Shown here in pieces: positions 9,063 to 57,742 of a stretch of 64,000 bases of DNA (positions are counted from its first letter, which is position 1; each line of letters opens with the position of its first letter). This stretch comes from Escherichia coli (GTDB taxonomy: Bacteria; Pseudomonadota; Gammaproteobacteria; Enterobacterales; Enterobacteriaceae), in assembly GCA_005400705.1 (NCBI GenBank), contig GCA_005400705.1_4079.1; one strand, given 5' to 3'. Under the pieces are notes generated by a model. It did not search any database and had not been told where the DNA came from. It saw nothing but the letters and a program-made list of their open reading frames with translations. A program made the position numbers and the translations under genes.

Positions 9063-9065
9063 TAA

Positions 9066-11631: not shown

Positions 11632-11633
11632 TC

Positions 11634-11984: not shown

Positions 11985-11988
11985 TATT

Positions 11989-12180: not shown

Positions 12181-12206
12181 CTTCGGTCAGCCTTTTTTGT
12201 TATAAT
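12175..12206 (+). terminator. fused terminator-promoter: hairpin GGTTGAC-TTCG-GTCAGCC, T-run, TATAAT
   Basis: Hairpin 12175-12192, T6 run, tataat 12201-12206; TTGACT inside stem lies 18 nt upstream of the -10. Confidence 0.65.
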
Positions 12207-12234
12207 TCTCTTAATAAATTAGAGGATTTTAATT

Positions 12235-13012: not shown

Positions 13013-13026
13013 ATATAGGATAACAT

Positions 13027-13293
13027 ATGAAGCTTAAATTACAATATAATGGATTTACTTTACGTAATGATACTGAATTTATTAATCGTTCTCCTGGTGC
13101 TGAACTGTTTTTACGAGAGATGAACATTCCTTTCATCATTACTACAGTGGGCGACCGTGAAGTTCTACAATACGCAGAGCATCCGATCATTGATGTTCCT
13201 TGGTACTCTGAGCATATGTACATGGATATGGCACGTCGCTACAACTGTAAGTTCGTAGTTGAAGGTGATAAAATTACAGTCGAATTTAAATAA
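13027..13293 (+). CDS. hypothetical protein
   Basis: 88 aa ORF. Confidence 0.5.
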   Translation: MKLKLQYNGFTLRNDTEFINRSPGAELFLREMNIPFIITTVGDREVLQYAEHPIIDVPWYSEHMYMDMARRYNCKFVVEGDKITVEFK

Positions 13294-13304
13294 GGTAAAT
13301 TAAA

Positions 13305-13598
13305 ATGATCAGTACTTCAGTTAATGAAAGCATCGTCGCTGACGTAGAAATGGTTAAAGAATGTGCAGATGAAACTCTTCGTGATATGTACATTAATGAT
13401 TTAATTACTGAATACGGTAGTCGTGGTGTACACGAATTTATTCGTTTAAGTGGAGAGTTGATGAAAAATCGAATTCGTATGAAGCTTAACGTACATCCAA
13501 AAGCATGGGCATTTACATTAAAATACGCAGAAGATATTGTGAATTTGCGTCGAACTGAAGTATATGAACGTTTGCACAATGGTATGTTAGATAAATGA
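13305..13598 (+). CDS. hypothetical protein
   Basis: 97 aa ORF. Confidence 0.5.
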   Translation: MISTSVNESIVADVEMVKECADETLRDMYINDLITEYGSRGVHEFIRLSGELMKNRIRMKLNVHPKAWAFTLKYAEDIVNLRRTEVYERLHNGMLDK

Positions 13599-13650
13599 TT
13601 GTAAAATAGGAATTCTTAAATGAATTCCTTTTTGTTTATAAGGTATAGTA

Positions 13651-13872
13651 ATGAAATATATAGTACTTGTACTGATATTATTCAGTACTGTTGTAAGTGC
13701 TAAACAAAAAGAATATGTTAAATGTATAAATTATGAAGAGAAATATGTTGAAACATATAAAAAAAGTATAATTAAAAACGTTTCGATTACTAACAGAGCA
13801 ACAATCATTGTACTTAAAAATGGGTTAATTATGCTATATAAACCACACGTTAAATGTGAAATTATTAATTGA
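13651..13872 (+). CDS. secreted small protein
   Basis: 73 aa, signal peptide. Confidence 0.45.
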   Translation: MKYIVLVLILFSTVVSAKQKEYVKCINYEEKYVETYKKSIIKNVSITNRATIIVLKNGLIMLYKPHVKCEIIN

Positions 13873-13879
13873 GGAAATT

Positions 13880-14452
13880 ATGAATCGTAAAGGTCGTTTT
13901 AAAGTATCAAAAAAGAACAAAAGTTCTAGGTTTAAACCTATTGTTTTAACAGTTAAATCTAACAAAGAATTAACTGCACTTAGTAAAAAGATAATTTCAT
14001 CTAAGATTGAAGTATCATACGTAAATTCATTAAAATATATGAATGTCAAACCACTGGACCAACTCATTTCACTTATATTTGAACGTAATGATTTTGAGAT
14101 ATCAGTAGATGATTATAGAGCCTATAATGCTGGTTTCATTAATGTTACTTGTAATAAAAAACTAACTGAGTTGGAAAATTTGTCATGTATAATAAATCTA
14201 GATAAAGGTGTAGTGAAGTACCATTTTGTACATTTCACTAATATCAATAATGGAATGGGTGTACAATCCAGACCTATAGTGCCTACGTGTGATGTTACTA
14301 AATTAGCAAAGCTCAATGATGAAGAATATTTTCAAGAAAGCATTGTAACTGAGCATTTAGATGATATAATAGCTACTTACAAAGAATGCATATGGGTGTT
14401 GAATGCTATAAAACCTAAATTGTGTTTAATGAATATTGTTCGTGATTTATGA
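13880..14452 (+). CDS. hypothetical protein
   Basis: 190 aa from ATG 13880 (RBS gaggaa). Confidence 0.5.
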   Translation: MNRKGRFKVSKKNKSSRFKPIVLTVKSNKELTALSKKIISSKIEVSYVNSLKYMNVKPLDQLISLIFERNDFEISVDDYRAYNAGFINVTCNKKLTELENLSCIINLDKGVVKYHFVHFTNINNGMGVQSRPIVPTCDVTKLAKLNDEEYFQESIVTEHLDDIIATYKECIWVLNAIKPKLCLMNIVRDL

Positions 14453-14465
14453 ATGGGGAATCGTA

Positions 14466-14909
14466 ATGAGTTGGGTAAATGTTAATAGTATTGAACTTAA
14501 CGAACAAGATATTTTTGCATTTGTAAATTTAACTAATAACACAGTACTAAAAGGGCGTTTGTTCAGTGCGAGTGATGGATATAAATGGATCTCTTTGATG
14601 GATGATAGTGGTGTGATTTATAATGTAATGCAATTACCCCAATGGGTATATAGTAACACTGCCGACGATGTTCTTGCCGCAGTTATGCGTGAGTTTGAAA
14701 AACTCCCAGGTGGTGATATCAAAAACAAAGTTTTTAATGCAGAACGGAAAAATTATACAGCACAGCAGTTGGAATCCCTTGCCATTGCTGCTTATCAAGC
14801 TGCTATTAAGAAGCCAGAGTGCGTTATTCTTAAGTATGTACCAGACTTAAAACTTACGTTGGAAGACATGGATGCATTCATTTTTACATCTGAACTTGAT
14901 CAGTACTAA
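14466..14909 (+). CDS. hypothetical protein
   Basis: 147 aa from ATG 14466. Confidence 0.5.
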   Translation: MSWVNVNSIELNEQDIFAFVNLTNNTVLKGRLFSASDGYKWISLMDDSGVIYNVMQLPQWVYSNTADDVLAAVMREFEKLPGGDIKNKVFNAERKNYTAQQLESLAIAAYQAAIKKPECVILKYVPDLKLTLEDMDAFIFTSELDQY

Positions 14910-15024
14910 TTTAACTTTGGGACAACCATTCTTATTATGATATAATGTTTTATGTCATTCGATATAAATGACAACGGAACTATAAATATTATAGTAAAAT
15001 TTATCTCTTATAGGAGTTATAAAA

Positions 15025-15408
15025 ATGGTTGATAAATGGAATAAGAAAGATCCATCACATGATGTTGATATTTCTGGTCTAGACAATGCACATAAGCACA
15101 AGTATCTAGATTCACTAGGTCTTCTAAAACCGGACCAAAGTCTTGCACATGATCGTCCATCCCGTGAAAAAGCATTTAGCCTAGAATCACTAGGTCATGA
15201 GCTTAATCGTGTGTTTGAGGATCACCCAATCTATGTACGTGATATTATCGAGAAACTTAAAGTAACTCCTAAAGAGCACTTTAAAGCAACAGTACACTCT
15301 GCATTCCGTGCATTGCATGATTCTCTCAAGAAAACTCACAATCTTCGTAAAATTCATGATGAAATCGTGAATGCAATCGAAAGTGAAAAACATAAGTTCA
15401 AGAAGTAA
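15025..15408 (+). CDS. hypothetical protein
   Basis: 127 aa, RBS taggag; shares YLDSLGLL motif with 15655 product. Confidence 0.55.
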   Translation: MVDKWNKKDPSHDVDISGLDNAHKHKYLDSLGLLKPDQSLAHDRPSREKAFSLESLGHELNRVFEDHPIYVRDIIEKLKVTPKEHFKATVHSAFRALHDSLKKTHNLRKIHDEIVNAIESEKHKFKK

Positions 15409-15414
15409 TAAAAA

Positions 15415-15448
15415 GGGGTTGACTAAGGTCAGCCCTTTGTTGTATCAT
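15415..15448 (+). terminator. fused terminator-promoter (GGGTTGAC-TAAG-GTCAGCCC)
   Basis: Hairpin 15415-15436, then TTT; candidate -10 tatcat 18 nt after the stem TTGACT. Confidence 0.55.
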
Positions 15449-15477
15449 AACTTCTCAATATAACTGAGGTATCATAT

Positions 15478-15591
15478 ATGCAAGGTTTGAAATTTGTAGT
15501 TGCTGCACTCATCGCCGCAGTACTGGTTGGTGGTGTATTCTATGTAGTGGATCAAAAAGTAAATCCACCTGCACAAGAACAATCTAAGTAA
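15478..15591 (+). CDS. small membrane peptide
   Basis: 37 aa ORF between two terminator hairpins, RBS gaggt, single TM helix. Confidence 0.35.
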   Translation: MQGLKFVVAALIAAVLVGGVFYVVDQKVNPPAQEQSK

Positions 15592-15599
15592 CAAAATAA

Positions 15600-15630
15600 G
15601 GTTGACTTCGGTCAGCCTTTTCTTTATACT
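15600..15630 (+). terminator. fused terminator-promoter (GGTTGAC-TTCG-GTCAGCC)
   Basis: Hairpin 15600-15617, T-run, tatact 15625-15630 (17 nt spacer from stem TTGACT). Confidence 0.6.
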
Positions 15631-15654
15631 ATAAATATAGTCATAGAGAAAAAA

Positions 15655-16932
15655 ATGAAATCTATGGAGAGAAATCAAATGCCAAGTAATTTTACTGATA
15701 AAAATGGTGGTAACATGGCTGGTCACTCTGATAAATGGAGTGAACGCAACCGCCGTCCAAATAGTTATCAAGCAGGTCAAGGTTCACGTGGGTCACGTAA
15801 TCAAGGAACTGGTCTAGCTGGTAAAGCAAACGCAGAAGCAGGTGAAGTTAAGAGTACTGAGAACATGACTGAGCTAGAAAAGCTACGTTATGTTAATTCA
15901 TTGGGACTTCTTAATGCTACACAAAAACAACGTCTAGCTGATATGGAACGTGAAGAAAAAGAAAAATCTGCTCCTGCTAAAGAAGAACCAAAACAAGAAG
16001 CACCAAAGGCGGTTAACCCTGTCAAAGAACTGTCTGATAAGTTAGGTAAGATTTTTGCTAATAAACCACAACTTATCCAAGGTATTGTGAAAGAATTGCA
16101 ATCTGTACCTAAAGAAGAATTAAAAGTCAAAGCACAAGCTGTACTTGATGCAATGAGTGGAAATACCAGTACTGAACCAACTGAAGTATTCAGTACTATA
16201 ATGCGTGCACTTGAAGGTACGCAACAAGGTGATGTGCCTGCACAAGAGGAAGTAAGTCTTGAAAGCGTACTTAAAACATTTGATAGTATTGGTAAAGAAG
16301 ACCGTGCTAATGCTCAACAAGTTAAGAATGTACTAGCTAAGTTAGAAAACCGTCTGGAAGGTAAAGACGATAAGATTAAATTAGTATCTGATGCAGTTAA
16401 CGATGCACTTAAATCTTACGTACAAGGTGAAAAGAGTCGTTTTGTAACTGCAATGGATGCTGCATTCAATACTATGAAAAAGTATGAAGCTGATCACGGT
16501 GAGAAGGTTACACGAGATGGTTATCTGATGCGTGATGATGAAGAAGGTGCAGTAGAACAGAACGATGTTCATTCAGACGAAGAAATTGATGACATGGAAG
16601 CTGAACTGTCACAAGACCGCCAAATGACTGAAAAATCCCATAACGAACTACAGAAATTAATGCAATGGGTTGCAGATGTTGGTGAAAAAGCTGGTGCTGA
16701 TAAGAAGAGTATAAACCGAAATCTTAGTTGGATTAAAGATAAAGTTGGTAACAACGCTCGTAAACTACAAAAAGCGTGGACTGATGTAGTGAATGGTGCT
16801 GTTGACATTGATGTTGAATCCGGTGAGGCATATGATTATGCATTGACTACACTTGATGACTCTTTCCGTGATTACGAAAATGGAAATGTAACTCCTTGGG
16901 AAAAGGACATCATGAGCAAATACGGTAAATGA
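15655..16932 (+). CDS. hypothetical charged (K/E/D-rich) protein
   Basis: 425 aa, largest plus-strand ORF, predicted coiled-coil-like; N-terminal YVNSLGLL motif. Confidence 0.65.
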   Translation: MKSMERNQMPSNFTDKNGGNMAGHSDKWSERNRRPNSYQAGQGSRGSRNQGTGLAGKANAEAGEVKSTENMTELEKLRYVNSLGLLNATQKQRLADMEREEKEKSAPAKEEPKQEAPKAVNPVKELSDKLGKIFANKPQLIQGIVKELQSVPKEELKVKAQAVLDAMSGNTSTEPTEVFSTIMRALEGTQQGDVPAQEEVSLESVLKTFDSIGKEDRANAQQVKNVLAKLENRLEGKDDKIKLVSDAVNDALKSYVQGEKSRFVTAMDAAFNTMKKYEADHGEKVTRDGYLMRDDEEGAVEQNDVHSDEEIDDMEAELSQDRQMTEKSHNELQKLMQWVADVGEKAGADKKSINRNLSWIKDKVGNNARKLQKAWTDVVNGAVDIDVESGEAYDYALTTLDDSFRDYENGNVTPWEKDIMSKYGK

Positions 16933-16942
16933 TAAAACAAAA

Positions 16943-16974
16943 GGTTGACTTCGGTCAGCCTTTTTTTGTAAATA
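16943..16974 (+). terminator. fused terminator-promoter (GGTTGAC-TTCG-GTCAGCC)
   Basis: Hairpin 16943-16960, T7 run, weak -10 taaata. Confidence 0.6.
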
Positions 16975-17003
16975 CAAAAGAGGAATTAAGAAGAGGGATT
17001 ACA

Positions 17004-17255
17004 ATGAAAAAATATATTATATTTGGAATTGTATTATTTTCCAGTACTACTTATGGTGCAGATTATCATTGCTCCGTAGCAAGGCAGGATTTCAGAAATG
17101 GGGAGTTCTATACTACCTCATACACAAAAGGAATAATACACGACACCGACAGAACTATTGGATTTAATGCGTTTGACAACAAAGATTCATATACTTCAGG
17201 TATACTATCTGAGCGTAAGACGGATGTACTCGGAATAGAAAAAGAGTTTCGGTGA
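17004..17255 (+). CDS. secreted small protein
   Basis: 83 aa from ATG 17004 with RBS; signal peptide; ORF-track start 16929 lies in the terminator. Confidence 0.5.
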   Translation: MKKYIIFGIVLFSSTTYGADYHCSVARQDFRNGEFYTTSYTKGIIHDTDRTIGFNAFDNKDSYTSGILSERKTDVLGIEKEFR

Positions 17256-17259
17256 TTCC

Positions 17260-17589
17260 GTGGCAATGTGTAATGACATTGAAAGTACTAAAAAAATTTA
17301 TTATAATAATGAAATAAATTATCGTTTTCATAATTTAACCACAAATAAAAGTTTACTATTTTACAATTGTAAAGAAGTAAAACTCCCACCAGACAATAGC
17401 TGTACTCCAACTAATCAACCCCCAGCACAATGTAATACTCCCTCTGAACCTGATAAAAATAAAAAAGACAAAGATAAAGATAAAAAAGAAGACAAAAAAC
17501 CTTTAAAAGATAAAAAGAAAGATAAAAAACCTAATCCGTTTAAAAATAATAAACCAGCACAACCCGATATGACGTGTAAAATAAAATAA
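17260..17589 (+). CDS. hypothetical protein with K/D-rich low-complexity tail
   Basis: 109 aa; KDKDKDKKEDKKPLKDKKKDKK. Confidence 0.4.
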   Translation: MAMCNDIESTKKIYYNNEINYRFHNLTTNKSLLFYNCKEVKLPPDNSCTPTNQPPAQCNTPSEPDKNKKDKDKDKKEDKKPLKDKKKDKKPNPFKNNKPAQPDMTCKIK

Positions 17590-17598
17590 GGATATAAA

Positions 17599-18018
17599 AT
17601 GAAAAAGATTTTTTTAAGTATTATTTTAGTACTTTTTAGTTTTAATGTATATGCAGCAGATGCTAAACAGGTTGCTAATACAGTAAAAGATGTTATAGTA
17701 GACAATGCTCCTACCTTAGAGGAAATTGGGGTAAAAACTTGTGATATTGTAATATATAATTTAGTTAATGATGAACGAGTTATGTTGAATACGTATGAAC
17801 AAGTAGTCCCATTGGTTGAATCTGGTGCTGCTTTTAGCTTTACATATAAAGTTAAATTAACAGGAGGGGTTGAAGTTAATCTTGACATTGATACCGCTTC
17901 AGTACTAAAAGATAAACTAGGATATGTGTTCAATCGTATTCGTGAAGAAGGTCATCTTAAGTATGTTTATGAAAGTAAAATACTAAAACGTGCAATAGTT
18001 ATAGAAAACTGTAAATGA
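17599..18018 (+). CDS. secreted protein (signal peptide)
   Basis: 139 aa, signal peptide MKKIFLSIILVLFSFNVYA. Confidence 0.55.
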   Translation: MKKIFLSIILVLFSFNVYAADAKQVANTVKDVIVDNAPTLEEIGVKTCDIVIYNLVNDERVMLNTYEQVVPLVESGAAFSFTYKVKLTGGVEVNLDIDTASVLKDKLGYVFNRIREEGHLKYVYESKILKRAIVIENCK

Positions 18019-18026
18019 TAATAAAA

Positions 18027-18059
18027 GGGTTGACTTCGGTCAGCCTTTTTTGTTATGAT
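18027..18059 (+). terminator. fused terminator-promoter (GGGTTGAC-TTCG-GTCAGCC)
   Basis: Hairpin 18027-18045, T6, tatgat 18054-18059. Confidence 0.65.
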
Positions 18060-18087
18060 GTTGATATTAACTACAGAGGATAAAGTA

Positions 18088-18729
18088 ATGACTAAGCAAG
18101 AAATATTCAAAACTTTAATTGACATTTTGCGTCCATCAAAAACTCGTTGTGCGATGGAGTTTGATATTCCTTATGCTGAACGCGTAATCTTTCCACAAGT
18201 TAAAGCTGCTGGACTTACTTTGCTTGGAATGGGGATGTACTCTGTAGTAGTTGAACATAAAAACTATCCTGGGCGTGCATTTAAAGTAACCACTTCACGC
18301 TGGGATGGTTTTCGTGCTTATGCAATGTACTGCATTGAAAACGCAGGAACCAAGTTTCTTCCAGTGATCTACAGTGCAAACGAACAAGGAAACTTTGGAT
18401 GGTATGAGATGGACAAGTACTATCCTATAATTAAACAAAAAAATAATTATGATGACTTTGTTAGTACTAAAATTGGAGATTTATATTCTTATGCACATGC
18501 TGGTCAGTATGCTACTTCAGTGAATGATATGCGTGGAAATTCTGAAGAGATTGCTATTGCGACGGTCGCTGCTAACATCATGAAAGAGTTTCACGGGTGT
18601 TTTGTACCAGACATTCATTCCAGTAATGTCATGATGGATAAAGATGGCAATGTATTCATTACTGATCCTCTTTCGTGTGATGTACGTAGAGAAATACCAG
18701 TTACTGAAGAAGATCCAGTTTTTTATTGA
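18088..18729 (+). CDS. kinase-like (phosphotransferase-fold) protein
   Basis: 213 aa from ATG 18088 (RBS gagga); DIHSSNVMMDKDGNVFITDP resembles the APH/protein-kinase catalytic loop and metal-binding Asp. Confidence 0.45.
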   Translation: MTKQEIFKTLIDILRPSKTRCAMEFDIPYAERVIFPQVKAAGLTLLGMGMYSVVVEHKNYPGRAFKVTTSRWDGFRAYAMYCIENAGTKFLPVIYSANEQGNFGWYEMDKYYPIIKQKNNYDDFVSTKIGDLYSYAHAGQYATSVNDMRGNSEEIAIATVAANIMKEFHGCFVPDIHSSNVMMDKDGNVFITDPLSCDVRREIPVTEEDPVFY

Positions 18730-18791
18730 CAGAACTGATGTAATGAGGTATTCTTAATAAACCATTAAAAAGTGCGGTAAAGGATAAAATC

Positions 18792-19073
18792 ATGCGTTCA
18801 TTTGAAAACTTAATAGGTAAGAATCTTTTATCTGAAATTGATGCAGACGTTAAAGAATTATCCAAATCAAAAAGTTACATTCATTTGGATGAACTATTTG
18901 TTAAGTACGGTGAGATTGGTTTTAAGTCATTATTTGTTTTTACTATGAAAGTACATAGTTTAAAGTACTTCGATTTGAGTGCTAAAGATGGTGAACCGAA
19001 TCTATATTACATGTATTACCTTAAGAACAAAGATGAAGCTAATACATTACTCTCTGAATATATATTGGGGTAA
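18792..19073 (+). CDS. hypothetical protein
   Basis: 93 aa ORF. Confidence 0.5.
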   Translation: MRSFENLIGKNLLSEIDADVKELSKSKSYIHLDELFVKYGEIGFKSLFVFTMKVHSLKYFDLSAKDGEPNLYYMYYLKNKDEANTLLSEYILG

Positions 19074-19075
19074 AA

Positions 19076-19414
19076 ATGGAACAATATTTTGAATTAATAA
19101 ACAAAGTATCATTTTATGTAGTATCTTTGGTTTGGGTGTATTATATGTTTTGCTACATTATTGCATTCTTCCGATACACTACTTTATATGAACGTATCTA
19201 CTATGATGCCCCAATTTCATTCTTGATGTTTTGTGCATGTACGTGGGGAATATTAGAAGTACTGATATGTGGGTATAGTACTGATGAATTAAATCTGGTA
19301 TCGGTGTTGACTGGGTTTTCATTTGTTGTTATGATAGCTGCCGTTCCAGTATGGTTGTTCTTTGGACTAGTTCATCGCATTGATATATGGCGTTCTAATA
19401 TCCCTGAAAAGTAA
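19076..19414 (+). CDS. small multi-pass membrane protein (paralog family M)
   Basis: 112 aa, 3-4 hydrophobic helices, C-terminal RSNIPEK. Confidence 0.55.
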   Translation: MEQYFELINKVSFYVVSLVWVYYMFCYIIAFFRYTTLYERIYYDAPISFLMFCACTWGILEVLICGYSTDELNLVSVLTGFSFVVMIAAVPVWLFFGLVHRIDIWRSNIPEK

Positions 19415-19417
19415 GGA

Positions 19418-19765
19418 TTGGTAATGATTTATTACACTAACATGTTTGCCTATGCTGTTGCTTGCATTTACATTGTTTACTTCTTATTCGGTGGAGTACT
19501 GTGCTTCTTTAAGTACAAAACGTTGTTCAACCGAATGTACCCAAATCATCCAATTGTAGTTGTACTTTTGATTCTTTCAGTTTCTCAAATAATCGTTGAA
19601 ACTACAATGGGTATCAGTAGTGTACATTATAGTTTTGGTACTATAGTAATTATTACTATGCTTATTGCATACATTTTAGTACTTGGATATGGTATCTTTG
19701 GTAATATTGGTATGAAAATGTATCATCGAATTAAAACATTACGTGATAATCTACCGGAGCGTTGA
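19418..19765 (+). CDS. small multi-pass membrane protein (paralog family M)
   Basis: 115 aa, C-terminal RDNLPER. Confidence 0.55.
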   Translation: MVMIYYTNMFAYAVACIYIVYFLFGGVLCFFKYKTLFNRMYPNHPIVVVLLILSVSQIIVETTMGISSVHYSFGTIVIITMLIAYILVLGYGIFGNIGMKMYHRIKTLRDNLPER

Positions 19766-39042: not shown

Positions 39043-39702
39043 ATGAAACTTAATGCACACAGCAAACAATACCTTAAGCACTTTAAGTACCTCAACAGTA
39101 TTCAAGCAGAATCTATTACATCTGCATATACGTATCACCCTAATGTACTAAAGAAACGAAATAAAAAGAAAAAATCCAGAAATGTTCTCGTATCTAAGAA
39201 CCTCAAATCGTACTTGAAGAAAAATAATATAGCTCTTGCTTTTATTAATATCTATAATACTGATTTAAAAGTATTGAGTACTAATACCAGCACAAAAGCA
39301 CTAAAGAATGCATCTATCTATATACACATGGATAATATCCCGTGCACTATAATTCTATCTTTCGGGAATGTATACTTCTTCGGGAATTGTAATAGCACCC
39401 ATGATATCAGTACTGCACAATTCCAAATCGGCGATATGTACTGCATGGGTTCAGAAAAAATACACGATAACATGCACTTCTTCCAAAAGCAACGTACTAA
39501 CGAAACTGATACAGTACTGCAATTCCTCAAAGAATTACAAAACAAAGAATTATCCGAGGAAGAAGAATTCATGTACAGTACTGTAATCGATAATCCAGAA
39601 CTCTATAAAAACGCGTACAATCTAACAAAACATGTACAGGAACTTATCAGTACTGATAAGAAATTTCATCACCTCATTACGTATATTTCAAACTATGTAT
39701 AA
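39043..39702 (+). CDS. hypothetical protein
   Basis: 219 aa, RBS aaggaaa; interrupts family A array. Confidence 0.55.
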   Translation: MKLNAHSKQYLKHFKYLNSIQAESITSAYTYHPNVLKKRNKKKKSRNVLVSKNLKSYLKKNNIALAFINIYNTDLKVLSTNTSTKALKNASIYIHMDNIPCTIILSFGNVYFFGNCNSTHDISTAQFQIGDMYCMGSEKIHDNMHFFQKQRTNETDTVLQFLKELQNKELSEEEEFMYSTVIDNPELYKNAYNLTKHVQELISTDKKFHHLITYISNYV

Positions 39703-39877
39703 AGAATACTACAAAGATAAAATCCCAATGCATCTACAACACCATATACCAAACGTTGCATTGGGTATCAAAGATCACGCAAAGATAATGTTCCAACAAT
39801 GTACTAAGTACACGCTCATATACGATGATAATCCATATATGCTGTACTACGTAGTAATGCTAACATTCAGGTACTAA
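39695..39877 (+). CDS. small protein, tandem family A
   Basis: 60 aa from ATG 39695; MYKEYYKDKIP ... LTFRY. Confidence 0.45.
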   Translation: MYKEYYKDKIPMHLQHHIPNVALGIKDHAKIMFQQCTKYTLIYDDNPYMLYYVVMLTFRY

Positions 39878-39878
39878 T

Positions 39879-40058
39879 ATGAATACTTATAAAGAATTCT
39901 ACCTCTCGTACCTTAATTCCGATATAGTAACATCCAATACATTCAGTACTAAAATTATCTATAATGAATTAATGAAAGAATGTATTAAAGGTGCTATTAA
40001 CCCTAAAGATACGTATGACTTGTACTATGCAGTACTAACCCTTGTTTTCACGAAATAA
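39879..40058 (+). CDS. small protein, tandem family A
   Basis: 59 aa (below cutoff); TAATATG overlap. Confidence 0.4.
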   Translation: MNTYKEFYLSYLNSDIVTSNTFSTKIIYNELMKECIKGAINPKDTYDLYYAVLTLVFTK

Positions 40059-40066
40059 CACATAAT

Positions 40067-40258
40067 ATGAATAACCACAAAGAATACTACATAGAGAAAC
40101 TCCCAATGTATCTCCAACACCTTGTACCAACAGAACCATTGGGTATAGAAAAAAACTACGAAAAAGACTACTTCATTCAGTGCACTAAATCCTCGATATA
40201 TATTGAAGACTATAATCGAGTACTGTATCACATCCTTTTACTAATATATAGGTACTAA
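40067..40258 (+). CDS. small protein, tandem family A
   Basis: 63 aa; C-terminal LLLIYRY. Confidence 0.5.
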   Translation: MNNHKEYYIEKLPMYLQHLVPTEPLGIEKNYEKDYFIQCTKSSIYIEDYNRVLYHILLLIYRY

Positions 40259-40259
40259 T

Positions 40260-40442
40260 ATGCACAAAGAATACTACACACAATTTCTCCCCAGCATTTT
40301 TGAACACTACGCCAGATACAAAGTCCCTATGGATAACGATTTGGCAGTACTGGGATTCAATAACTGCATAGAACGAAGTATAGAAAATAGTAGTAGTTAT
40401 GACCAGCTATATAACACTATCCTACTTATATTCAGGTACTAA
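40260..40442 (+). CDS. small protein, tandem family A
   Basis: 60 aa; C-terminal ILLIFRY. Confidence 0.5.
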   Translation: MHKEYYTQFLPSIFEHYARYKVPMDNDLAVLGFNNCIERSIENSSSYDQLYNTILLIFRY

Positions 40443-40443
40443 T

Positions 40444-40629
40444 ATGCATAAAGAATACTACACACAATTTGTTAAAGGGAACTACAAACATGCCGTACCC
40501 AGAACCCCTTTAAATTCTCATGACCCAAGTACTATATTCTTGTTTAATGACGCAATACGTACAGTACTCAATACTAAAGATGAAGATGTGCAGTACGTAT
40601 TCTTACTATTACTTATATACAGACACTAA
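40444..40629 (+). CDS. small protein, tandem family A
   Basis: 61 aa from ATG 40444; C-terminal LLLLIYRH. Confidence 0.45.
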   Translation: MHKEYYTQFVKGNYKHAVPRTPLNSHDPSTIFLFNDAIRTVLNTKDEDVQYVFLLLLIYRH

Positions 40630-40634
40630 CTAAT

Positions 40635-40844
40635 ATGAATAAAGAACATAAAGAATTCTACTCCAAATACATAAGCCCCTCAGAACAAATGTTTCTAAGG
40701 ACTACTCCACCTTTAAGTACTAATACATTTTTCGGCAGAGTATGCTACAATAATTGTATTCAAATGACTTTAAACGCAAACGAAGATGGTAACAGTACTA
40801 ACCTGTACTCAGGTATCATAGGTATACTATTCCTGTATGAATAA
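40635..40844 (+). CDS. small protein, tandem family A
   Basis: 69 aa. Confidence 0.45.
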   Translation: MNKEHKEFYSKYISPSEQMFLRTTPPLSTNTFFGRVCYNNCIQMTLNANEDGNSTNLYSGIIGILFLYE

Positions 40845-41025
40845 TTACAAAGACTTCTATTTGAATACACTACCTACTGTACTTTCTCTAAGTGCTCAAT
40901 GTAAAATCCCGCTGGATAATGCTTACGCCAGATATAGCTATTCCATAACTGTTAATCGATGTATAGAGAATCATTGCAGTACTAACCAGTACTATAACAT
41001 AATCCTACTTATATTCAGGTACTAA
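40837..41025 (+). CDS. small protein, tandem family A
   Basis: 62 aa; C-terminal ILLIFRY. Confidence 0.5.
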   Translation: MNNYKDFYLNTLPTVLSLSAQCKIPLDNAYARYSYSITVNRCIENHCSTNQYYNIILLIFRY

Positions 41026-41026
41026 T

Positions 41027-41209
41027 ATGAATAAAGAACATAAAGAATTCTATATACGAAAACTAACATTCGTCCCCGTAAGAATATATAAAGAATGCGA
41101 CCCAAGATTATACCTATGGCACTTCAATGAGTGCATAAAAGATTCTATATACCATAAGAACTATAAAGAACAATTGTGCTCAGTACTAACACTAGTACTA
41201 TCATATTAA
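41027..41209 (+). CDS. small protein, tandem family A
   Basis: 60 aa. Confidence 0.45.
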   Translation: MNKEHKEFYIRKLTFVPVRIYKECDPRLYLWHFNECIKDSIYHKNYKEQLCSVLTLVLSY

Positions 41210-41224
41210 TTAATAGAGAATACT

Positions 41225-41416
41225 ATGTATAAAAACTTCTATATAAGTAAACTAAAAGAAAATGAACAAGTATGGATTAGATCTATAATTCCACTGGCAT
41301 TTAATAGATATGCATTTAACAGATGTACCGAGATTGCTATAGACCCTTATAATATTAAAGAGAATGTACAGTATAATCAGTACTACTATATCTTAATGCT
41401 TATATATAGAAAGTAA
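41225..41416 (+). CDS. small protein, tandem family A
   Basis: 63 aa; C-terminal ILMLIYRK. Confidence 0.45.
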   Translation: MYKNFYISKLKENEQVWIRSIIPLAFNRYAFNRCTEIAIDPYNIKENVQYNQYYYILMLIYRK

Positions 41417-42054
41417 TTAAACACAAGTAGACAGGGGAAGCTCCTAGTGAACAACCTTTATGTACAGGCGAATTGTTAAAATTCAGCCTGGACAAATGCG
41501 ATCACTAGGATTCTCCCCAGGCTAAACCCCGTAATCATAGGTAGTCATAAGTAATCATATATAAACATTTATATGAGCACCGTAGAATCACAGAATGATT
41601 ATATATGATTCAGTACTGATTAGTATAGACAAGATTGCTCAAGAATGCACGGAAATGTGTGTGAATGATTCAGTACTGATATCCCACTAAGTAGGCAGAG
41701 GAAGTCTGCCGTACTTTTTAGTTTCCAAGCTCCTTTTCCATTTTTCAAATTACATCAAATGTAATCAAAAGTAATCACGCAATGATTAGTACTGAATTAT
41801 TACTTTCACCTTAATTACAATTACCCTTTTACCCTTCGGGGTAAAATTCCATTACCCCTTGAGGCTCCAGCAAAAAGTTGGTTAGTACTCCATCCTAAAT
41901 CTCGATCCTAAAAATTTTGGAGTACCTATGAAATAAAAGTTGGATCTTCGAAAGTTGAAATTTACGTTGGGACGTTTATGATTTGTGGGATATAATGATG
42001 TTTGTAGTCGGGTAGTTCTCAAGAATATCAGTACTGAATGATGAAAGAAAGCTA

Positions 42055-42082
42055 TTGACTTTATGATTCAGTACTGTATAAT
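42055..42082 (+). promoter_or_regulatory. orphan promoter TTGACT-16-TATAAT with no ORF downstream
   Basis: ttgact 42055-42060, tataat 42077-42082, followed by gttttacat as in the PeSL-type promoters. Confidence 0.5.
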
Positions 42083-42088
42083 GTTTTA

Positions 42089-42200
42089 CATAGAGAGATG
42101 AGTTGCCGCAAACAATTCATTCACTCTACTTCCTGTCGTGAGACAGTACAGAAAGATAGTTCCTCCTATGGGTGGTACATCTTTTAGAACCTCTTTTTTC
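42089..42200 (+). ncRNA. candidate small RNA
   Basis: About 110 nt from the orphan promoter to the T-run ctcttttttc at 42191-42200, no ORF. Confidence 0.25.
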
Positions 42201-42410
42201 GTAATATGAACAGTACTGATATTAACAGAATGGTGTCAGTACTGATTTTAATTTAATGCATTATGCCACCAGCACAAGCTGGTGGATTCCCTCTAACAGT
42301 ATTCAGTACTACATGATGGTCTTCATCCTCCTAGGGTAACATAGTGAGGGCTATGATGGCAGTACTGAATACTCCCTTTCAAAAGATAGATCTATGGTAT
42401 AGTACTGACG

Positions 42411-42600
42411 GATTTTGGGCGTAGTTACCCTGGATGGATTTTGGACGTAGATATGTCTAGCCCTCCAGAAGTCTGGAAGTAAAGATGGCTATCCATCTAG
42501 ACGGCTAAACGGCTAGATTTCTGGATGGCTGGATGGCTAGACGTTTGGACGGCTAAACGGCTAGATGGTTACACGTCTGGAAGTATAGACGGCTAAATCA
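42411..42600. repeat. iteron-like direct repeats
   Basis: gacggctaaacggctagat twice (42500-42518, 42548-42566); ggatggct three times; gtctggaagta twice; gattttgg(g/a)cgtag twice. Confidence 0.6.
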
Positions 42601-43337
42601 AAATTTTATTTTGTTTTTTCCAATAGTTCCCCTACCGCGTGGGGATAGTTTCCCCGCAGTATCTGGAGTTAGATTTTTCTGAATCTGGAATCATTATCTT
42701 ATAAACTGGGGGCAATGTCAACCGCCTGGACGGATATTTTTAAAAATTTTTTCAGTACTGAATTTTGGGCGTAACTATGCACCCGGTGGGCTTGAGTCTT
42801 TCTCGACTTGATGGAACTATTATACAGTACTGGAAAAATAAAGCAATACCCTGGAAGCAAAAAAGTTTTAATTAATTTGCTTGCTATCCTGGGCCGGACT
42901 ATGGTACTATATTTCAGTACTGAGAAAGTGCGTTTACCTGCTAGGGTGCGGGAGTGTATCCTTTTTTTATATCTTGAATTTTGGGCGTAATTCCGCACCC
43001 TCTGGGGTTTCCGCTTTCTCGCGTCTATGTAGTAATTATACGCTTTTTCAGGATCAAGTCAATACCTAAAAACAAAATAATTGAAAATAATTTAACGCGT
43101 TTAAACGGCCCGTAAAGCCCTGGAATGATTGGAATGGTGCAAATGTATAGCTTAGGTGTATTAATGCGTTAGAATGCGTCTGAGGCCGTTTTACGGGGTA
43201 TAGGGATGATTTGGTGGATTGATTCAGTACTGAATGATAGTACTACTATATAGAAAGATAGTTCCCCTGAATGGTTGCAGTACTGAATGATAGTTCCCCT
43301 ATATAGAAAGAAAACTATTTTAAAAGTATTTGTAGAA

Positions 43338-43402
43338 AGTACTTGCAAACTAAGTTTAACGGCGTATAATGTTTTACATCGAGAGCGGGAACACTTCCCG
43401 CT
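43338..43402 (+). promoter_or_regulatory. PeSL-like cassette (promoter AGTACTTGCAAAC..TATAAT, stem-loop GCGGGAA-CAC-TTCCCGC)
   Basis: tataat 43365-43370 within gtataatgttttacatc; hairpin 43385-43401. Confidence 0.6.
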
Positions 43403-43425
43403 ACATATTACGAGAGATTAAAACG

Positions 43426-43788
43426 ATGGCGACTCAAATCACTAAAATTATTGCTAACCTGGTTAACTTTCGCGACGAGATGAAAGATCTTCCGGCAGAA
43501 ACGGTAAAAATTCACATTTCAGCTTATCGGGAACTTATTGCAATGTTACCGCTTAAGCGTGAACAATACGCCGCGACCGTGATGCTTGATGCGATGATCC
43601 ATAAGATGATCGCCAGTGATTTAACGATGGTTTATCAGTATATGGGCGAAAATTTCGCGGTGTATAGTAAACCAGTACCAGGAATGGAAAGTACAGAAGT
43701 ATTACACGGTTTAAATTTAAAACAAGATGCATGGGATAATATGCCTCGTTTCCTGGTATGGGCTGACAGTGGCAAGATTTACGAATAA
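43426..43788 (+). CDS. hypothetical protein
   Basis: 120 aa from ATG 43426 downstream of the cassette hairpin; ORF-track start 43369 is the ATG inside tataATGtttt. Confidence 0.55.
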   Translation: MATQITKIIANLVNFRDEMKDLPAETVKIHISAYRELIAMLPLKREQYAATVMLDAMIHKMIASDLTMVYQYMGENFAVYSKPVPGMESTEVLHGLNLKQDAWDNMPRFLVWADSGKIYE

Positions 43789-51220: not shown

Positions 51221-51364
51221 ATGAATCCAACAGGTTTAAATTATAAAAGTTGTTCGGCGTTTACGAAAGCAAATAAAGCGAATGCACGTAAAGCGAAAGT
51301 ACAGGAATACATCAAGCAAGGCATGACGCGAAAGGCGGCGATTCTAAAAGCTAAAAATAAATGA
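51221..51364 (+). CDS. small basic protein
   Basis: 47 aa, start abuts upstream stop. Confidence 0.35.
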   Translation: MNPTGLNYKSCSAFTKANKANARKAKVQEYIKQGMTRKAAILKAKNK

Positions 51365-51371
51365 AAAAAGT

Positions 51372-51402
51372 GGTTGACTCCGGTCAGCCATTTTGCTATT
51401 AT
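51372..51402 (+). terminator. fused terminator-promoter (GGTTGAC-TCCG-GTCAGCC)
   Basis: Hairpin 51372-51389, TTTT, tattat 51397-51402. Confidence 0.6.
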
Positions 51403-51488
51403 ATATTCATTGAGAGATAGCTCACTAGCCCACAGGGTGCATAAGTGTATCTATTATATAAGTATTGAGTACTGAAAACTATTTTTAA

Positions 51489-51554
51489 AAAGTACTTGCA
51501 AACTATCTCAATTGGCGTATAATGTTTTACATCGCAAGGGGAAACGGTTTCCCC
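51489..51554 (+). promoter_or_regulatory. PeSL-like cassette
   Basis: aaagtacttgcaaactatctcaattggcgtataat, palindromic stem ggggaaac-g-gtttcccc. Confidence 0.6.
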
Positions 51555-52563: not shown

Positions 52564-52761
52564 ATGATTAGCATGAAATCAGTACAAAAACAAATAGAAA
52601 CATTATCAAAAATTAAACGTAAACAGTACTCGTTAGAATATACAATCAATGGTAACTATCATCTAATGAAAGAGAATAATTTTATCGTCATTGATGAATC
52701 ATTGCAAGTTATTAGTATAGTACTGAAAGCATTAATCAATGACAGAAAAAAATTAAAATAA
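52564..52761 (+). CDS. hypothetical protein
   Basis: 65 aa. Confidence 0.45.
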   Translation: MISMKSVQKQIETLSKIKRKQYSLEYTINGNYHLMKENNFIVIDESLQVISIVLKALINDRKKLK

Positions 52762-52765
52762 TCTA

Positions 52766-52794
52766 TTGACAATATCCTCCAGTACTGGCATAAT
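52766..52794 (+). promoter_or_regulatory. promoter TTGACA-17-CATAAT (AGTACTGG class)
   Basis: ttgaca 52766-52771, agtactggcataat. Confidence 0.5.
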
Positions 52795-52856
52795 ACTTAC
52801 ATCAAGACGAGAACGTCACCAACCCATAGGGTGCACAAATGTAACTATATAATATC

Positions 52857-52929
52857 GATCAATAAATGATCAAAAAAGTACTGGATCAATTTAGCATAAG
52901 GCGTATAATTCTGATCAATTCTTGATCAA
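52857..52929. repeat. cluster of five (T)GATCAA repeats (GATC sites)
   Basis: gatcaa at 52857, 52868, 52884, 52913, 52924, flanking a tataat at 52903-52908. Confidence 0.5.
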
Positions 52930-53090
52930 AGGCAATATACGCAGTTGAATTTATATAGACAGTACAAAGGCGTTACTATCCGTGGTAATGCTGGTGGATA
53001 TGTAGTATCATATGGTTTGAATAAGATAAACACTAGTAGTATTATTGTAGCATTACAGTACTATAGTATTTTTATAATGAGGTTAAAATA

Positions 53091-53348
53091 ATGGCAGTAG
53101 GATACGCGAAAGACGGGGCCGAACAAGACGAGATTCATGCAGTGATTCAGGCCGCCGTTAACCACGCTAGAAAGCAAATTAACGCACAAAGAGAATCACT
53201 GGTACATTGCCTCGACTGCGGCGATAAAATTCCTGAGAATCGACGCCAGGCCGTTATAGGGTGCATGTATTGTATTACTTGCCAGGAGGATCATGATAGT
53301 ACTTTTAAAAGAGATCCGCGTAATTGTTGGCATAGATCTATGAGATAA
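53091..53348 (+). CDS. TraR/DksA-family C4 zinc-finger protein
   Basis: 85 aa; CLDCGDKIPENRRQAVIGCMYCITCQ gives CxxC-x17-CxxC as in TraR/DksA. Confidence 0.65.
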   Translation: MAVGYAKDGAEQDEIHAVIQAAVNHARKQINAQRESLVHCLDCGDKIPENRRQAVIGCMYCITCQEDHDSTFKRDPRNCWHRSMR

Positions 53349-53354: not shown

Positions 53355-53383
53355 ATTGACAGTACTGAAAGATAGTGTATAAT
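53355..53383 (+). promoter_or_regulatory. sigma70-type promoter TTGACA-17-TATAAT
   Basis: ttgaca 53355-53360, tataat 53378-53383. Confidence 0.55.
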
Positions 53384-53412: not shown

Positions 53413-53769
53413 ATGGGAATACAACATATCACGCGTACTACTGACAATGGCGAGATCACTGGTTATCAAGTACAGGGCAAAGTAGCACAATTGCAGTACT
53501 GGTTTGTTAAACGTGGAATCATTGCACCGGATCTTGATTATGACCGTGTAGCGTTTATTGATTCTCTTTATGTTGATCCTGATAGTCGGGGCAATGGTGA
53601 AGGTAACGAATTAATGAATGCCTTTATCGATGCCGCCGATGATTCAGATTGTATCATCTTAGAATGCGATACGGGAGAAGATAACGCCTTTAATCTTAAA
53701 GAATGGTACGAAGGTTTCGGATTCGAGGTATTGATAGATAGTGAATATCCTATCATGATTTTATCATAG
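53413..53769 (+). CDS. hypothetical protein, possibly GNAT-like acetyltransferase
   Basis: 118 aa; IDSLYVDPDSRGNGEGNELMNAFIDAA loosely resembles GNAT motif A. Confidence 0.5.
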   Translation: MGIQHITRTTDNGEITGYQVQGKVAQLQYWFVKRGIIAPDLDYDRVAFIDSLYVDPDSRGNGEGNELMNAFIDAADDSDCIILECDTGEDNAFNLKEWYEGFGFEVLIDSEYPIMILS

Positions 53770-54595: not shown

Positions 54596-54741
54596 AAGAA
54601 TTCTTATTTGAAGTAGTGTTTCAAGGTGTCGGTAATAACCAACTGATTCGATCAAGTGGTTATAATGTTAACCAGGCATGGAATAACATTAAACAAATGT
54701 ACCCTAACGCTATCACCTATCGCAACCCGAAAGAAGTTTAA
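54592..54741 (+). CDS. small protein
   Basis: 49 aa, ATGA overlap. Confidence 0.35.
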   Translation: MKEFLFEVVFQGVGNNQLIRSSGYNVNQAWNNIKQMYPNAITYRNPKEV

Positions 54742-54755
54742 AAATAATTGAAAAA

Positions 54756-54789
54756 GGGATTGACTCCGGTCAGTCCCTTTGCTATTATA
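54756..54789 (+). terminator. fused terminator-promoter (GGGATTGAC-TCCG-GTCAGTCCC)
   Basis: Hairpin 54756-54777, TTT, tattat 54784-54789. Confidence 0.6.
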
Positions 54790-54873
54790 TACGCATAGAA
54801 ACAAATCAGCCCACCGGGTGCATAAATGTATCTATTGTTTGCTGGTGGCTAGTACTGAAAACTATTTTTAAAA

Positions 54874-54906
54874 AGTACTTGCATTGTACTTAGAATCAAG
54901 TATAAT
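54874..54906 (+). promoter_or_regulatory. PeSL-type promoter driving the structured element
   Basis: aaagtacttgcattgtacttagaatcaagtataat. Confidence 0.55.
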
Positions 54907-56883: not shown

Positions 56884-57126
56884 ATGATTACTTTAGAAAA
56901 ACGTATCAAAGAAACTACATCGCTGGTGGAACTGTTAACAGTACTGAAATGTAAAACAACACCATTCAGCACGCCGGACTTTATTAATATGGTTGATGTT
57001 AATGGTCGCTATCGCATCACGGTCGAACAAGGAGCGGCGAAAGTATTCAGTACTAAAAACACCAAGGAAGTGATCCACGCCGTTAATGTTAAAAAAGTAG
57101 TTGCCATTGATAGTAAAGTACTGTAA
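56884..57126 (+). CDS. hypothetical protein
   Basis: 80 aa. Confidence 0.5.
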   Translation: MITLEKRIKETTSLVELLTVLKCKTTPFSTPDFINMVDVNGRYRITVEQGAAKVFSTKNTKEVIHAVNVKKVVAIDSKVL

Positions 57127-57157: not shown

Positions 57158-57742
57158 ATGCGTAATTATACTAAATTCATCCGTACACTGTCAGAAATGG
57201 AAACCAACAAAGAGATCCTTTCAGCTTGTCGGTTAGCTGGCCTGGAGATCATCGGTGCTGGTTCTTCCCGTATAGTATTCGCTTTAAATGATCGGTTAGT
57301 GATTAAGGTCGCGAATTGTGATGCGGGTGTAGAACAAAATGAAACTGAATGTAAGGTATGGAATTTTTTAGACTATGACCGCCCTCAGTTGAAACAGTAC
57401 TTTGCAAAGGTGCATATGCATTTATGCGATCCTGATAATATGTTTATCGTTATGGATCGGTTGAGTACTGCAAGCAAAGGCAGTGTGAAGCACGTTAACG
57501 CGTGCAATGAATTAAAGTACAATATTAAACGTAATGCCATTGAACGCCAGCACCGCTTTGCTGATGCACTACAACACGTTGATGATACCTTATCAACACT
57601 AACTATAAGAGATATCAGAAAACAGAATATCGGCCAGGATCGCAACGGCTTGATTAAAGTACTTGATTACGGTTTAACCCGCAATATCTGGAATCAGTAC
57701 TATAAAAAGCGTGATGTAAAAGCCGTAACTATAACACGATAA
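57158..57742 (+). CDS. protein kinase-like protein
   Basis: 194 aa from ATG 57158 (RBS aaggaga); Gly-rich IGAGSSRIVF, Lys in VIKVA, RDIRKQNIG (HRD-like), VLDYGL (DFG-like). Confidence 0.5.
   Translation: MRNYTKFIRTLSEMETNKEILSACRLAGLEIIGAGSSRIVFALNDRLVIKVANCDAGVEQNETECKVWNFLDYDRPQLKQYFAKVHMHLCDPDNMFIVMDRLSTASKGSVKHVNACNELKYNIKRNAIERQHRFADALQHVDDTLSTLTIRDIRKQNIGQDRNGLIKVLDYGLTRNIWNQYYKKRDVKAVTITR

Follow-up and report, generated by a model that had tools for sequence, protein, structure and literature searches.

A YbiI-like C4 zinc-finger protein of the TraR/DksA superfamily in an Asteriusvirus jumbo phage is a candidate early modulator of host RNA polymerase

The DNA stretch analyzed here, 64,000 nucleotides in length and referred to as the window, carries an open reading frame (ORF) with an ATG start codon and a TAA stop codon, which encodes an 85-aa protein, MAVGYAKDGAEQDEIHAVIQAAVNHARKQINAQRESLVHCLDCGDKIPENRRQAVIGCMYCITCQEDHDSTFKRDPRNCWHRSMR. 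The original prediction, made from the sequence, placed a zinc-finger ORF with CxxC-x17-CxxC spacing at this site and quoted the peptide CLDCGDKIPENRRQAVIGCMYCITCQ. This peptide is present in the ORF, and the predicted spacing is found exactly, as CLDC-x17-CITC. The four cysteines are C40, C43, C61 and C64, with a gap of exactly 17 residues between C43 and C61, and I47, P48, E49, R51 and R52 form an IPExRR motif. When the six-frame translation of the window is searched with a regular expression, no other ORF of the CxxC-x17-CxxC type is found. The Shine-Dalgarno sequence of this gene, which is hereafter termed the TraR-like gene, is unchanged in 5 relatives. An intact ORF is found in each of the 11 phages examined, among them UB and PBECO4. 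The gene is under purifying selection, with dN/dS values of 0.11-0.22 against the Asteriusvirus orthologs. The positions of the gene and of the features surrounding it are summarized in Table 1.

Table 1. Features at the locus in window coordinates, and terminal repeats of related phages in their own coordinates
Feature	Position	Strand	Remarks
Direct repeat TTAAAATAAT (10 bp), left copy	52753..52762	+	Cassette boundary; comparison with phAPEC6
Promoter P1, TTGACA-17-CATAAT with TG extension	52766..52794	+	11/12; consensus scan; repeat family D4
Five GATCAA (Dam-site) repeats in 73 bp	52857..52929	+	Surround a promoter-like element
Promoter-like P2, AAAAAGTACTGGATC-N16-TATAAT	52873..52909	+	Repeat family D10; GATC in -35 region
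48-aa ORF	52945..53091	+	Stop overlaps start of TraR-like gene (TAATG)
Shine-Dalgarno GAGG	53079..53082	+	8 nt 5' of ATG; read from sequence
Direct repeat TTAAAATAAT, right copy	53083..53092	+	Covers stop of 48-aa ORF and start of TraR-like gene
TraR/YbiI-type C4 zinc-finger protein gene	53091..53348	+	ATG, 85 aa and TAA
Conserved N-terminal tip MAVG[FY]AKDGAEQDEI	53091..53135	+	Putative secondary-channel-inserting end
C4 zinc-binding motif CLDC-x17-CITC	53208..53282	+	Includes IPExRR; regex, six-frame translation
C-terminal basic tail KRDPRNCWHRSMR	53307..53345	+	Alignments; last nine residues RNCWHRSMR
Consensus sigma-70 promoter	53356..53383	+	12/12; just 3' of TraR-like gene; serves GNAT gene
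GNAT acetyltransferase gene	53413..53769		Next gene after TraR-like gene
Terminal repeat of vB_Ec-M-J	1-21525		Ortholog at 12349-12606
Terminal repeat of fENko-Kae01	1-19736		Ortholog at 4429-4689
Terminal repeat of fEgEco12, 20,993 bp (PMC13070987)			Ortholog at 11479-11736

The 85-aa protein matches the Pfam profile HMM PF01258 (zf-dskA_traR) with 36.9 bits (E 3.7e-9, residues 39-68), and thereby exceeds the curated gathering score of 24.9 bits. It also matches PHROG 54, annotated as 'DksA-like zinc-finger protein' (E 8e-19), and both matches lie well outside what chance would give. The top NCBIfam match is the YbiI equivalog PRK11019, with 78.6 bits over residues 1-73, which lies under the cutoff of 96. 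The score of 49.1 bits for TIGR02419 (C4_traR_proteo, the TraR subfamily of phages and conjugal plasmids) likewise lies under its cutoff of 59.7, and NF033459, a DksA-like model, gives 14.2 bits at a cutoff of 105. Sequence searches of the PDB retrieve E. coli YbiI (2KGO, E 2.4e-11), in an alignment that begins at residue 1, and F-plasmid TraR (6N57/5W1S, E 5e-6). In a profile-profile comparison with the TraR family, hhalign places residues 19-73 on TraR residues 16-70 with a probability of 99.2%. An AF2 model, built from 47 homologs and of moderate quality (pLDDT 71), consists of an N-terminal helix (residues 6-28), a zinc knuckle, a short C-helix (residues 62-68) and a low-confidence tail. 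When the PDB is searched with this model by Foldseek, YbiI ranks first, RNA polymerase-bound TraR ranks next, and chlamydial and E. coli DksA follow; the match to TraR (6n57_M) has an E-value of 1.8e-3 and TM-scores of just 0.45-0.52.

Because the Pfam, PHROG, NCBIfam, PDB, hhalign and AF2/Foldseek matches all point to it, membership of the 85-aa protein in the TraR/DksA C4 zinc-finger superfamily is judged secure from sequence and predicted structure. The original prediction called the protein TraR/DksA-like and proposed a Pfam search, in which a missing match would speak against this identity, and a structural prediction as checks; it is borne out by both. By its sequence, the protein is assigned to the YbiI branch and not to the TraR branch of the superfamily. 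Its length and its single-helix architecture, as modeled, are those of TraR and not those of DksA.

YbiI (2KGO, PRK11019) is the best match in both sequence and structure. The two proteins have in common the N-terminal MAxG[FWY]AxDGA, the cysteine spacing, IPExRR, a similar length (88 aa for YbiI) and a basic tail that ends with S-x-[LM]-R. They are only 43-57% identical, and they differ at position 11, which is Val in bacteria, where the N-terminal signature is MAxG[FW]AxDGAVQ, but Glu in the phage clade. Their tails also differ, with YNRRGSKDSQLR in bacterial YbiI and PRNCWHRSMR in the phage proteins, and YbiI is chromosomal, whereas the 85-aa protein is encoded by virulent phages.

F-plasmid TraR (5W1S, 6N57), which regulates RNA polymerase from the secondary channel independently of ppGpp, resembles the 85-aa protein in that it is small, borne by a mobile element, and composed of a single N-terminal helix, a C4 zinc globular domain and a C-terminal element. 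In the alignments, TraR P45, E46, R48 and R49 have P48, E49, R51 and R52 as their counterparts, and TraR E66 corresponds to D69. However, the two proteins are 26% identical, DxxDxA of TraR is not conserved in the 85-aa protein, and the 85-aa protein has an N-terminal extension of 2-3 residues. In addition, the 16-residue C-terminal helix of TraR, which binds beta-Si1, is replaced by a short helix and a 17-residue basic tail, which is unlike it.

The homologs of lambda (Orf73), P2 (Orf82), VP882 (Orf61) and VHML (Orf8) are similarly phage-encoded members of the same superfamily with the same size. These homologs are early proteins, bind RNA polymerase and inhibit the promoters for rRNA and ribosomal proteins (PMC9239242). 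Unlike the 85-aa protein, they come from temperate phages, and their tip lies at residues 3-8, with DxxDxA in Orf73 and DxxDxI in P2 Orf82. Lambda Orf73 is 37% identical to the 85-aa protein and has another tip and another tail, while the 85-aa protein belongs to a virulent jumbo phage and its gene lies, by homology, in a terminal repeat. DksA shares the Pfam zinc-finger domain and the cysteine spacing, and its structures stand lower in the Foldseek list. It is longer, at 151 aa against 85 aa, and has two helices in a coiled coil as well as the residues of ppGpp site 2, whereas the 85-aa protein has one helix.

Conservation was analyzed with the 47 homologs. No variation is seen at C40, C43, C61, C64, I47, P48, R51 or R52, and conservation of E49 is 90% or higher. 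At the N-terminus, M1, A2 and G4 do not vary between phages and bacterial YbiI, and A6, K7, D8, G9, A10 and Q12 reach 90% conservation or more over the same range. This tip is acidic (D8, E11, D13 and E14), is the best-conserved stretch of the protein and is thus under strong constraint. The strict DxxDxA motif is absent from the N-terminus MAVGYAKDGAEQDE, where KDGAEQDE is found. With the +3 helix offset, A6, G9 and E11 take the positions of TraR D3, D6 and A8. With a one-residue shift these positions are taken by F5, D8 and A10, so that D8-x-A10 is kept and an aromatic residue occupies the position of the first Asp. The distance from D6 to Cys is 29-33 residues in TraR-type proteins, and either D8 or E11 could match TraR D6, because the spacing to the first Cys fits both; a D8-x-x-E11 reading agrees with the spacing to the zinc finger equally well. 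Alignment does not fix the register of the tip against TraR DxxDxA: its placement by MAFFT is arbitrary, and hhalign leaves residues 1-18 unaligned to the TraR tip.

At the other end of the protein, the start of the C-helix is kept, with Q65 and D69 corresponding to TraR Q62 and E66. Beyond this start the helix is short and is followed by a proline-containing basic tail. The tail PRNCWHRSMR is invariant and phage-specific, while bacterial YbiI ends with YNRRGSKDSQLR instead, and the tail HNRKVWHRSMR of a distant relative is intermediate between the two. A second zinc site formed by C58, H68, C79 and H81 was rejected, since C58 and H68 vary within the phage clade, and it is also opposed by replacement of C79 with Val in a more distant relative. 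The four matches of the 231-aa protein P0262 to the C-terminal region were rejected as chance matches of a tandem-repeat sequence.

The region is 91-99% identical to the Asteriusvirus jumbo coliphages Ecwhy_1, vB_EcoM_JNE01, WPEC3/5, fEgEco12, 121Q and PBECO4, and the window is thus identified by sequence as Asteriusvirus DNA of the 121Q/PBECO4 group. The 'C-4 type zinc finger protein' of Ecwhy_1 is 100% identical to the 85-aa protein, and the orthologs of 121Q (gp294), fEgEco12 (g030) and vB_Ec-M-J (EcMJ_029) are labelled 'DksA-like zinc-finger protein', while the UB and PBECO4 records carry no annotation of this ORF. Protein, family and annotation can all be found in public records already, since the same protein is so annotated in public phage genomes, and the finding is therefore an ordinary one.

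Sequence searches reveal a phage clade of 84-87-aa proteins. A homolog is detected by tblastn in 533 phage records, mainly from large virulent myoviruses. The Asteriusvirus homologs are 88-96% identical to the 85-aa protein, and those of T4-like phages, such as Moon, SP18, RZ, Yersinia MHG19 and fHe-Yen9-01, are 62-72% identical. In T4-like phages, the gene lies within the variable tk - rI - mobD - nrdC.11 region. A 67%-identical protein from a 350-kb contig is tied by tblastn and annotation to the Salmonella Munch / Klebsiella fENko-Kae01 jumbo phages. Bacterial YbiI (88 aa) is 47-61% identical over its aligned part. Within the phage clade, the first 12 residues, MAVG[FY]AKDGAEQ, and the final nine, RNCWHRSMR, which follow a conserved [FY][KR]R-x-P, are near-invariant; both ends are thus kept although core identity falls to 62-72%. 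Upon exhaustive search of 1.84 billion representatives, 573 relatives are obtained, and their N-termini are of three types: the YbiI type, the TraR type (MxDxxDxA) and a third type with GYGGPDDE. A functional test of the YbiI-type clade of virulent phages, or a mention of its altered tip or invariant tail, was not found in a literature search, and a search for Asteriusvirus transcriptomics yielded genome descriptions only.

The interval between an upstream 65-aa gene and the TraR-like gene is a 330-bp cassette, which contains P1, a short conserved element that recurs at 51427 and 54808, the GATCAA cluster around P2, and the 48-aa ORF. The overlap of stop and start codons (TAATG) suggests, at the sequence level, that the 48-aa ORF and the TraR-like gene are translationally coupled. 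The product of the 48-aa ORF is 63% identical to that of PBECO4/UB although the DNA has diverged; it matches PHROG 38664 (E 3.7e-31) and is annotated as 121Q gp293 and fEgEco12 g029. P2 was missed by the consensus scan and is therefore considered weaker than its neighbours. It is a member of a repeated early-promoter family.

The five GATC sites of the cluster start at 52857, 52868, 52884, 52913 and 52924, and all are GATCAA on the + strand. Among the 148 GATC and 33 GATCAA sequences of the window, they form the densest GATC cluster. The Poisson probability of at least five GATC in 75 bp is about 1e-6 per position and about 0.07 after a crude correction for all positions, as computed before counting that all five share the 6-mer GATCAA. 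In UB and PBECO4, four upstream GATC are kept as TGATCAA/TTGATCAA despite diverged flanks, and the two downstream copies are missing. The cluster that the original prediction described as preceding the gene is thus real, but it does not adjoin the gene: the cluster occupies the stretch 160-235 bp upstream, beyond the 48-aa ORF, within an optional cassette. phAPEC6 lacks the entire 330-bp segment and has a single copy of TTAAAATAAT, so that the TAA of the upstream gene adjoins the ATG of the TraR-like gene. Four more relatives, among them ph0011 and Sharanji, match at the nucleotide level only from about 10 bp 5' of the ATG onward. The promoter cassette is, from these comparisons, optional. The possibility that the GATC cluster is a required control element of the TraR-like gene was therefore rejected; this gene does not need the cluster, because some relatives are without the cassette. 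A replication origin or a structured RNA at the cluster has no support: inspection by eye reveals no DnaA-box-like site there, the leader folds weakly (z -1.8), and Rfam has no match in the window. It is speculation that the cluster could make P2 sensitive to Dam or SeqA. Sharanji is reported to have an N6-adenine methyltransferase gene.

When positions 39500-43500 of the window are mapped on vB_Ec-M-J, the repeat boundary falls at about 42.3 kb. By homology to its relatives (Table 1), the TraR-like gene is located within a direct terminal repeat of about 21 kb. At least 36 near-consensus sigma-70 promoters are found between 41955 and 63016, all on the + strand, and none is found in the 6 kb preceding 41955. 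Their discriminators are AT-rich, typically GTTTTACA, with a mean GC of 0.30. In two Asteriusvirus papers, the transcription genes described include one for a phage sigma factor, and no phage RNA polymerase is reported (PMC11895373, PMC13070987), which suggests dependence on host RNA polymerase. It is thus very probable that unmodified host polymerase transcribes the TraR-like gene early and that each virion genome has two copies of this gene, because it lies at a terminal-repeat position among sigma-70 promoters and no phage RNA polymerase is reported. Promoter and stem-loop units are repeated ahead of each small gene. This layout recalls that of T4-type phages, in which PeSL cassettes drive modular shuffling (PMC2839356, PMC4122927). 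There is no support for a functional tie between the TraR-like gene and the GNAT gene: the GNAT gene is served by a consensus promoter of its own, and PBECO4 has a replacement in its place.

DksA/ppGpp and TraR inhibit promoters that form short-lived open complexes and have GC-rich discriminators, and spare or stimulate promoters that form stable complexes. In TraR, the N-terminal helix brings DxxDxA to the active site, and this motif is dispensable for binding but essential for activity; R48 of the globular domain contacts the rim helices, P45, E46 and R49 contact beta'Si3, and the C-terminal helix lies on the beta-lobe/Si1 (PMC9239242, PMC6970531). DxxDxA is likewise required for the activities of DksA and lambda Orf73, but not for their binding, and all five TraR homologs tested bind RNA polymerase (PMC9239242). 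Lambda Orf73 increases the burst size 3-4 fold, and it is proposed to shut the promoters for rRNA and ribosomal proteins, leaving phage promoters active (PMC9239242). Homologs with an imperfect tip, such as Gp34 without D3 and P2 Orf82 without A8, and VHML Orf8 with an N-terminal extension, bind RNA polymerase but work less well (PMC9239242).

[quoted passage not shown] The reported rescue of dksA auxotrophy by overexpressed YbiI (PMC2613031, data not shown there) is a further precedent. It would be an early, ppGpp-independent factor made from host sigma-70 promoters in the terminal-repeat block. Its zinc globular domain would dock at the mouth of the secondary channel, via IPExRR, on the beta' rim helices and beta'Si3, and its acidic N-terminal helix would extend toward the active site. 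The promoters for rRNA and ribosomal proteins, with their short-lived open complexes, would be inhibited, while the near-consensus phage promoters with AT-rich discriminators would be spared, and RNA polymerase and cell resources would thereby be redirected to the phage. That the protein binds RNA polymerase, in which direction it acts and when it is expressed are what this reading adds to the observed family membership, fold class, conservation under selection, genomic position and promoter context. We infer the TraR-like activity from sequence and analogy, and do no more than infer it, because the protein belongs to a YbiI-like branch and the strict DxxDxA tip is missing. The absent strict tip, the NCBIfam scores under their cutoffs, the short C-helix and the moderate model are counted against this reading. 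The original prediction of a host-transcription modulator in a cassette block is supported at the level of the family: the promoter block and the terminal-repeat context fit it, with the qualifications that the strict TraR tip is absent from this YbiI-branch protein and that the GATC cluster is part of the optional cassette and not of the gene.

The absence of the strict tip and the presence of an invariant tail raise a different view of the clade as a whole. The YbiI-type proteins of Asteriusviruses and T4-like phages, with their G[FY]AKDGAEQ tip and RNCWHRSMR tail, might constitute a distinct class of secondary-channel factor, which acts as a plug or an adaptor rather than as an inhibitor of rRNA promoters. 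We consider this view doubtful. In its first form, the protein would bind RNA polymerase, but its non-canonical tip would not inhibit initiation; it would instead exclude DksA (with ppGpp site 2) and the Gre factors from the channel, and thereby blunt the host stringent response. The IPExRR binding motif is invariant, while an aromatic residue stands at the first Asp position or else the tip is shifted in register. DksA and TraR can bind without their tip aspartates but do not function without them, and Gp34 and P2 Orf82, with imperfect motifs, bind well and act weakly (PMC9239242), as such a plug would. However, the N-terminal 12 residues are the best conserved from bacteria to phages, as is expected for an active rather than a decayed tip, and D8-G9-A10 (Asp-x-Ala) and the acidic residues E11, D13 and E14 are retained. 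Overexpressed YbiI rescued dksA auxotrophy, although the data were not shown in that paper (PMC2613031), and such rescue represents DksA-like activity rather than antagonism. A plug of this kind is therefore regarded as unlikely.

In its second form, the invariant tail PRNCWHRSMR or the N-terminus would recruit a phage or host protein or a nucleic acid, and activity would belong to the complex. The tail hardly varies among Asteriusviruses and T4-like phages, although the protein cores are only 62-72% identical, and AF2 predicts it to be disordered alone. In many relatives, translation of the gene is apparently coupled to that of the conserved 48-aa ORF. A precedent for a partner-dependent phage TraR is provided by the growth-arresting TraR_VP882-QisA complex (bioRxiv 10.64898/2026.07.27.740977). 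The 48-aa ORF, however, is missing in phAPEC6 and its relatives and in T4-like phages, in which the same tail is kept, and no co-conserved neighbour is seen, the GNAT gene being replaced in PBECO4. Moreover, the phage tail is not a phage invention, because it is a variant of the bacterial YbiI tail. It is therefore rather improbable that the protein functions as an adaptor.

A zinc ribbon that acts outside transcription, in metal or iron homeostasis or on another target, is the least probable of these readings and is considered quite unlikely. It draws on the fact that YbiI is the closest characterized relative by sequence and was suspected by the TraR authors to function more likely in iron metabolism (PMC2613031), and that some C4 proteins of the TraR/DksA family are not DksA-like in action (PMC9239242); but the non-functional family members are 105-114 aa in size and are without the tip motif and, among other features, the C-terminal helix (PMC9239242), whereas the 85-aa protein retains the RNA polymerase-contact residues and a TraR-like length and topology, and a putative immediate-early position in phages that use host RNA polymerase suits a takeover role.

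The preferred reading of the 85-aa protein thus remains that of an early secondary-channel factor with a TraR-like outcome. With TraR-family proteins, mobile elements can reprogram the RNA polymerase of the host and need not induce ppGpp. To our knowledge, such reprogramming has been demonstrated solely for the plasmid protein and its temperate-phage homologs. Here, a TraR-like gene is located among the putative immediate-early terminal-repeat genes of a virulent jumbo phage that probably uses host RNA polymerase, and T4-like phages widely carry members of this clade. This raises the question of whether strictly lytic phages use the TraR-type trick, and the further question of whether a YbiI-type tip and tail give a different outcome. 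The sequence finding adds little in itself, and the altered tip together with the invariant tail is a modest lead. If the YbiI-type clade does form a distinct class of secondary-channel factor, it would be a new way for phages to counter the stringent response of the host.

The near-consensus sigma-70 promoters in window 41955-63016 number at least 36 and lie without exception on the plus strand. Each of these promoters is followed by a small ORF, and often by a GGGGA..TCCCC stem-loop. The onset of this array is abrupt, at approximately 42 kb, where the direct terminal repeat of approximately 21 kb starts, as placed by homology to vB_Ec-M-J. The layout of the array is similar to those of the T4 PeSL cassettes and of the pre-early region in the terminal repeat of phage T5.

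The AGTACT palindrome shows the strongest hexamer bias of the whole window (1-64000), in which 299 copies are present versus approximately 21 expected from dinucleotide shuffles (14-fold excess). Its density varies from 9 to 31 copies per 4 kb and is highest at 36000-60000, and CAGTACTG is a frequent extended form. Promoters do not account for most of the copies, because only 33 of the 299 (approximately 11%) are located exactly 7 or 27 nt upstream of TATAAT.

A unit of approximately 110-150 nt is present in three copies, in which a promoter (TTGACT..TATTAT or TTGACA..CATAAT) is followed by a conserved element, (A/G)CCCAyaGGGTGCAyAArTGTAwCTAT, and then by the following promoter. As no convincing ORF is present in this unit, it possibly functions as a short leader or as a small RNA. 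It has no Rfam match at the gathering threshold.

Coordinates of the repeated units, the upstream ORF and the partial TraR-like matches
Feature	Position	Strand	Remark
Repeated unit, copy 1	51348-51500		
Repeated unit, copy 2	52766-52915		
Repeated unit, copy 3	54734-54885		
48-aa ORF	52945-53091	+	TTG start; MNLYRQYKGVTIRGNAGGYVVSYGLNKINTSSIIVALQYYSIFIMRLK; PHROG 38664
C-terminal-half match H134	vB_EcoM-RPN187 57249-57362		phage record
C-terminal-half match H135	PhAPEC2 56957-57070		phage record

The TraR-like ORF is intact in phages UB (locus L003, 954-1211) and PBECO4 (locus L004, 954-1211), but is unannotated in the GenBank/RefSeq record of either phage. In some T4-like phages, the match is confined to the C-terminal half of the protein (residues 47-85, approximately 52% identical), and PHROG 25948, a 54-aa family, likewise matches residues 57-85. 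These C-terminal-only matches may represent truncated derivatives of the TraR-like gene or its mis-called starts.

The end of the 48-aa ORF overlaps the start codon of the TraR-like gene at TAATG, and its protein sequence is kept although the DNA has diverged. Comparison of window 52753-53092 with the phAPEC6 locus (L005, 990-1020) reveals a 330-bp insertion/deletion, which is flanked on both sides by a 10-bp direct repeat, TTAAAATAAT, covering both the stop of a gene and the start of its downstream neighbour. This indel shows that a promoter-plus-small-gene cassette is gained or lost among close relatives.
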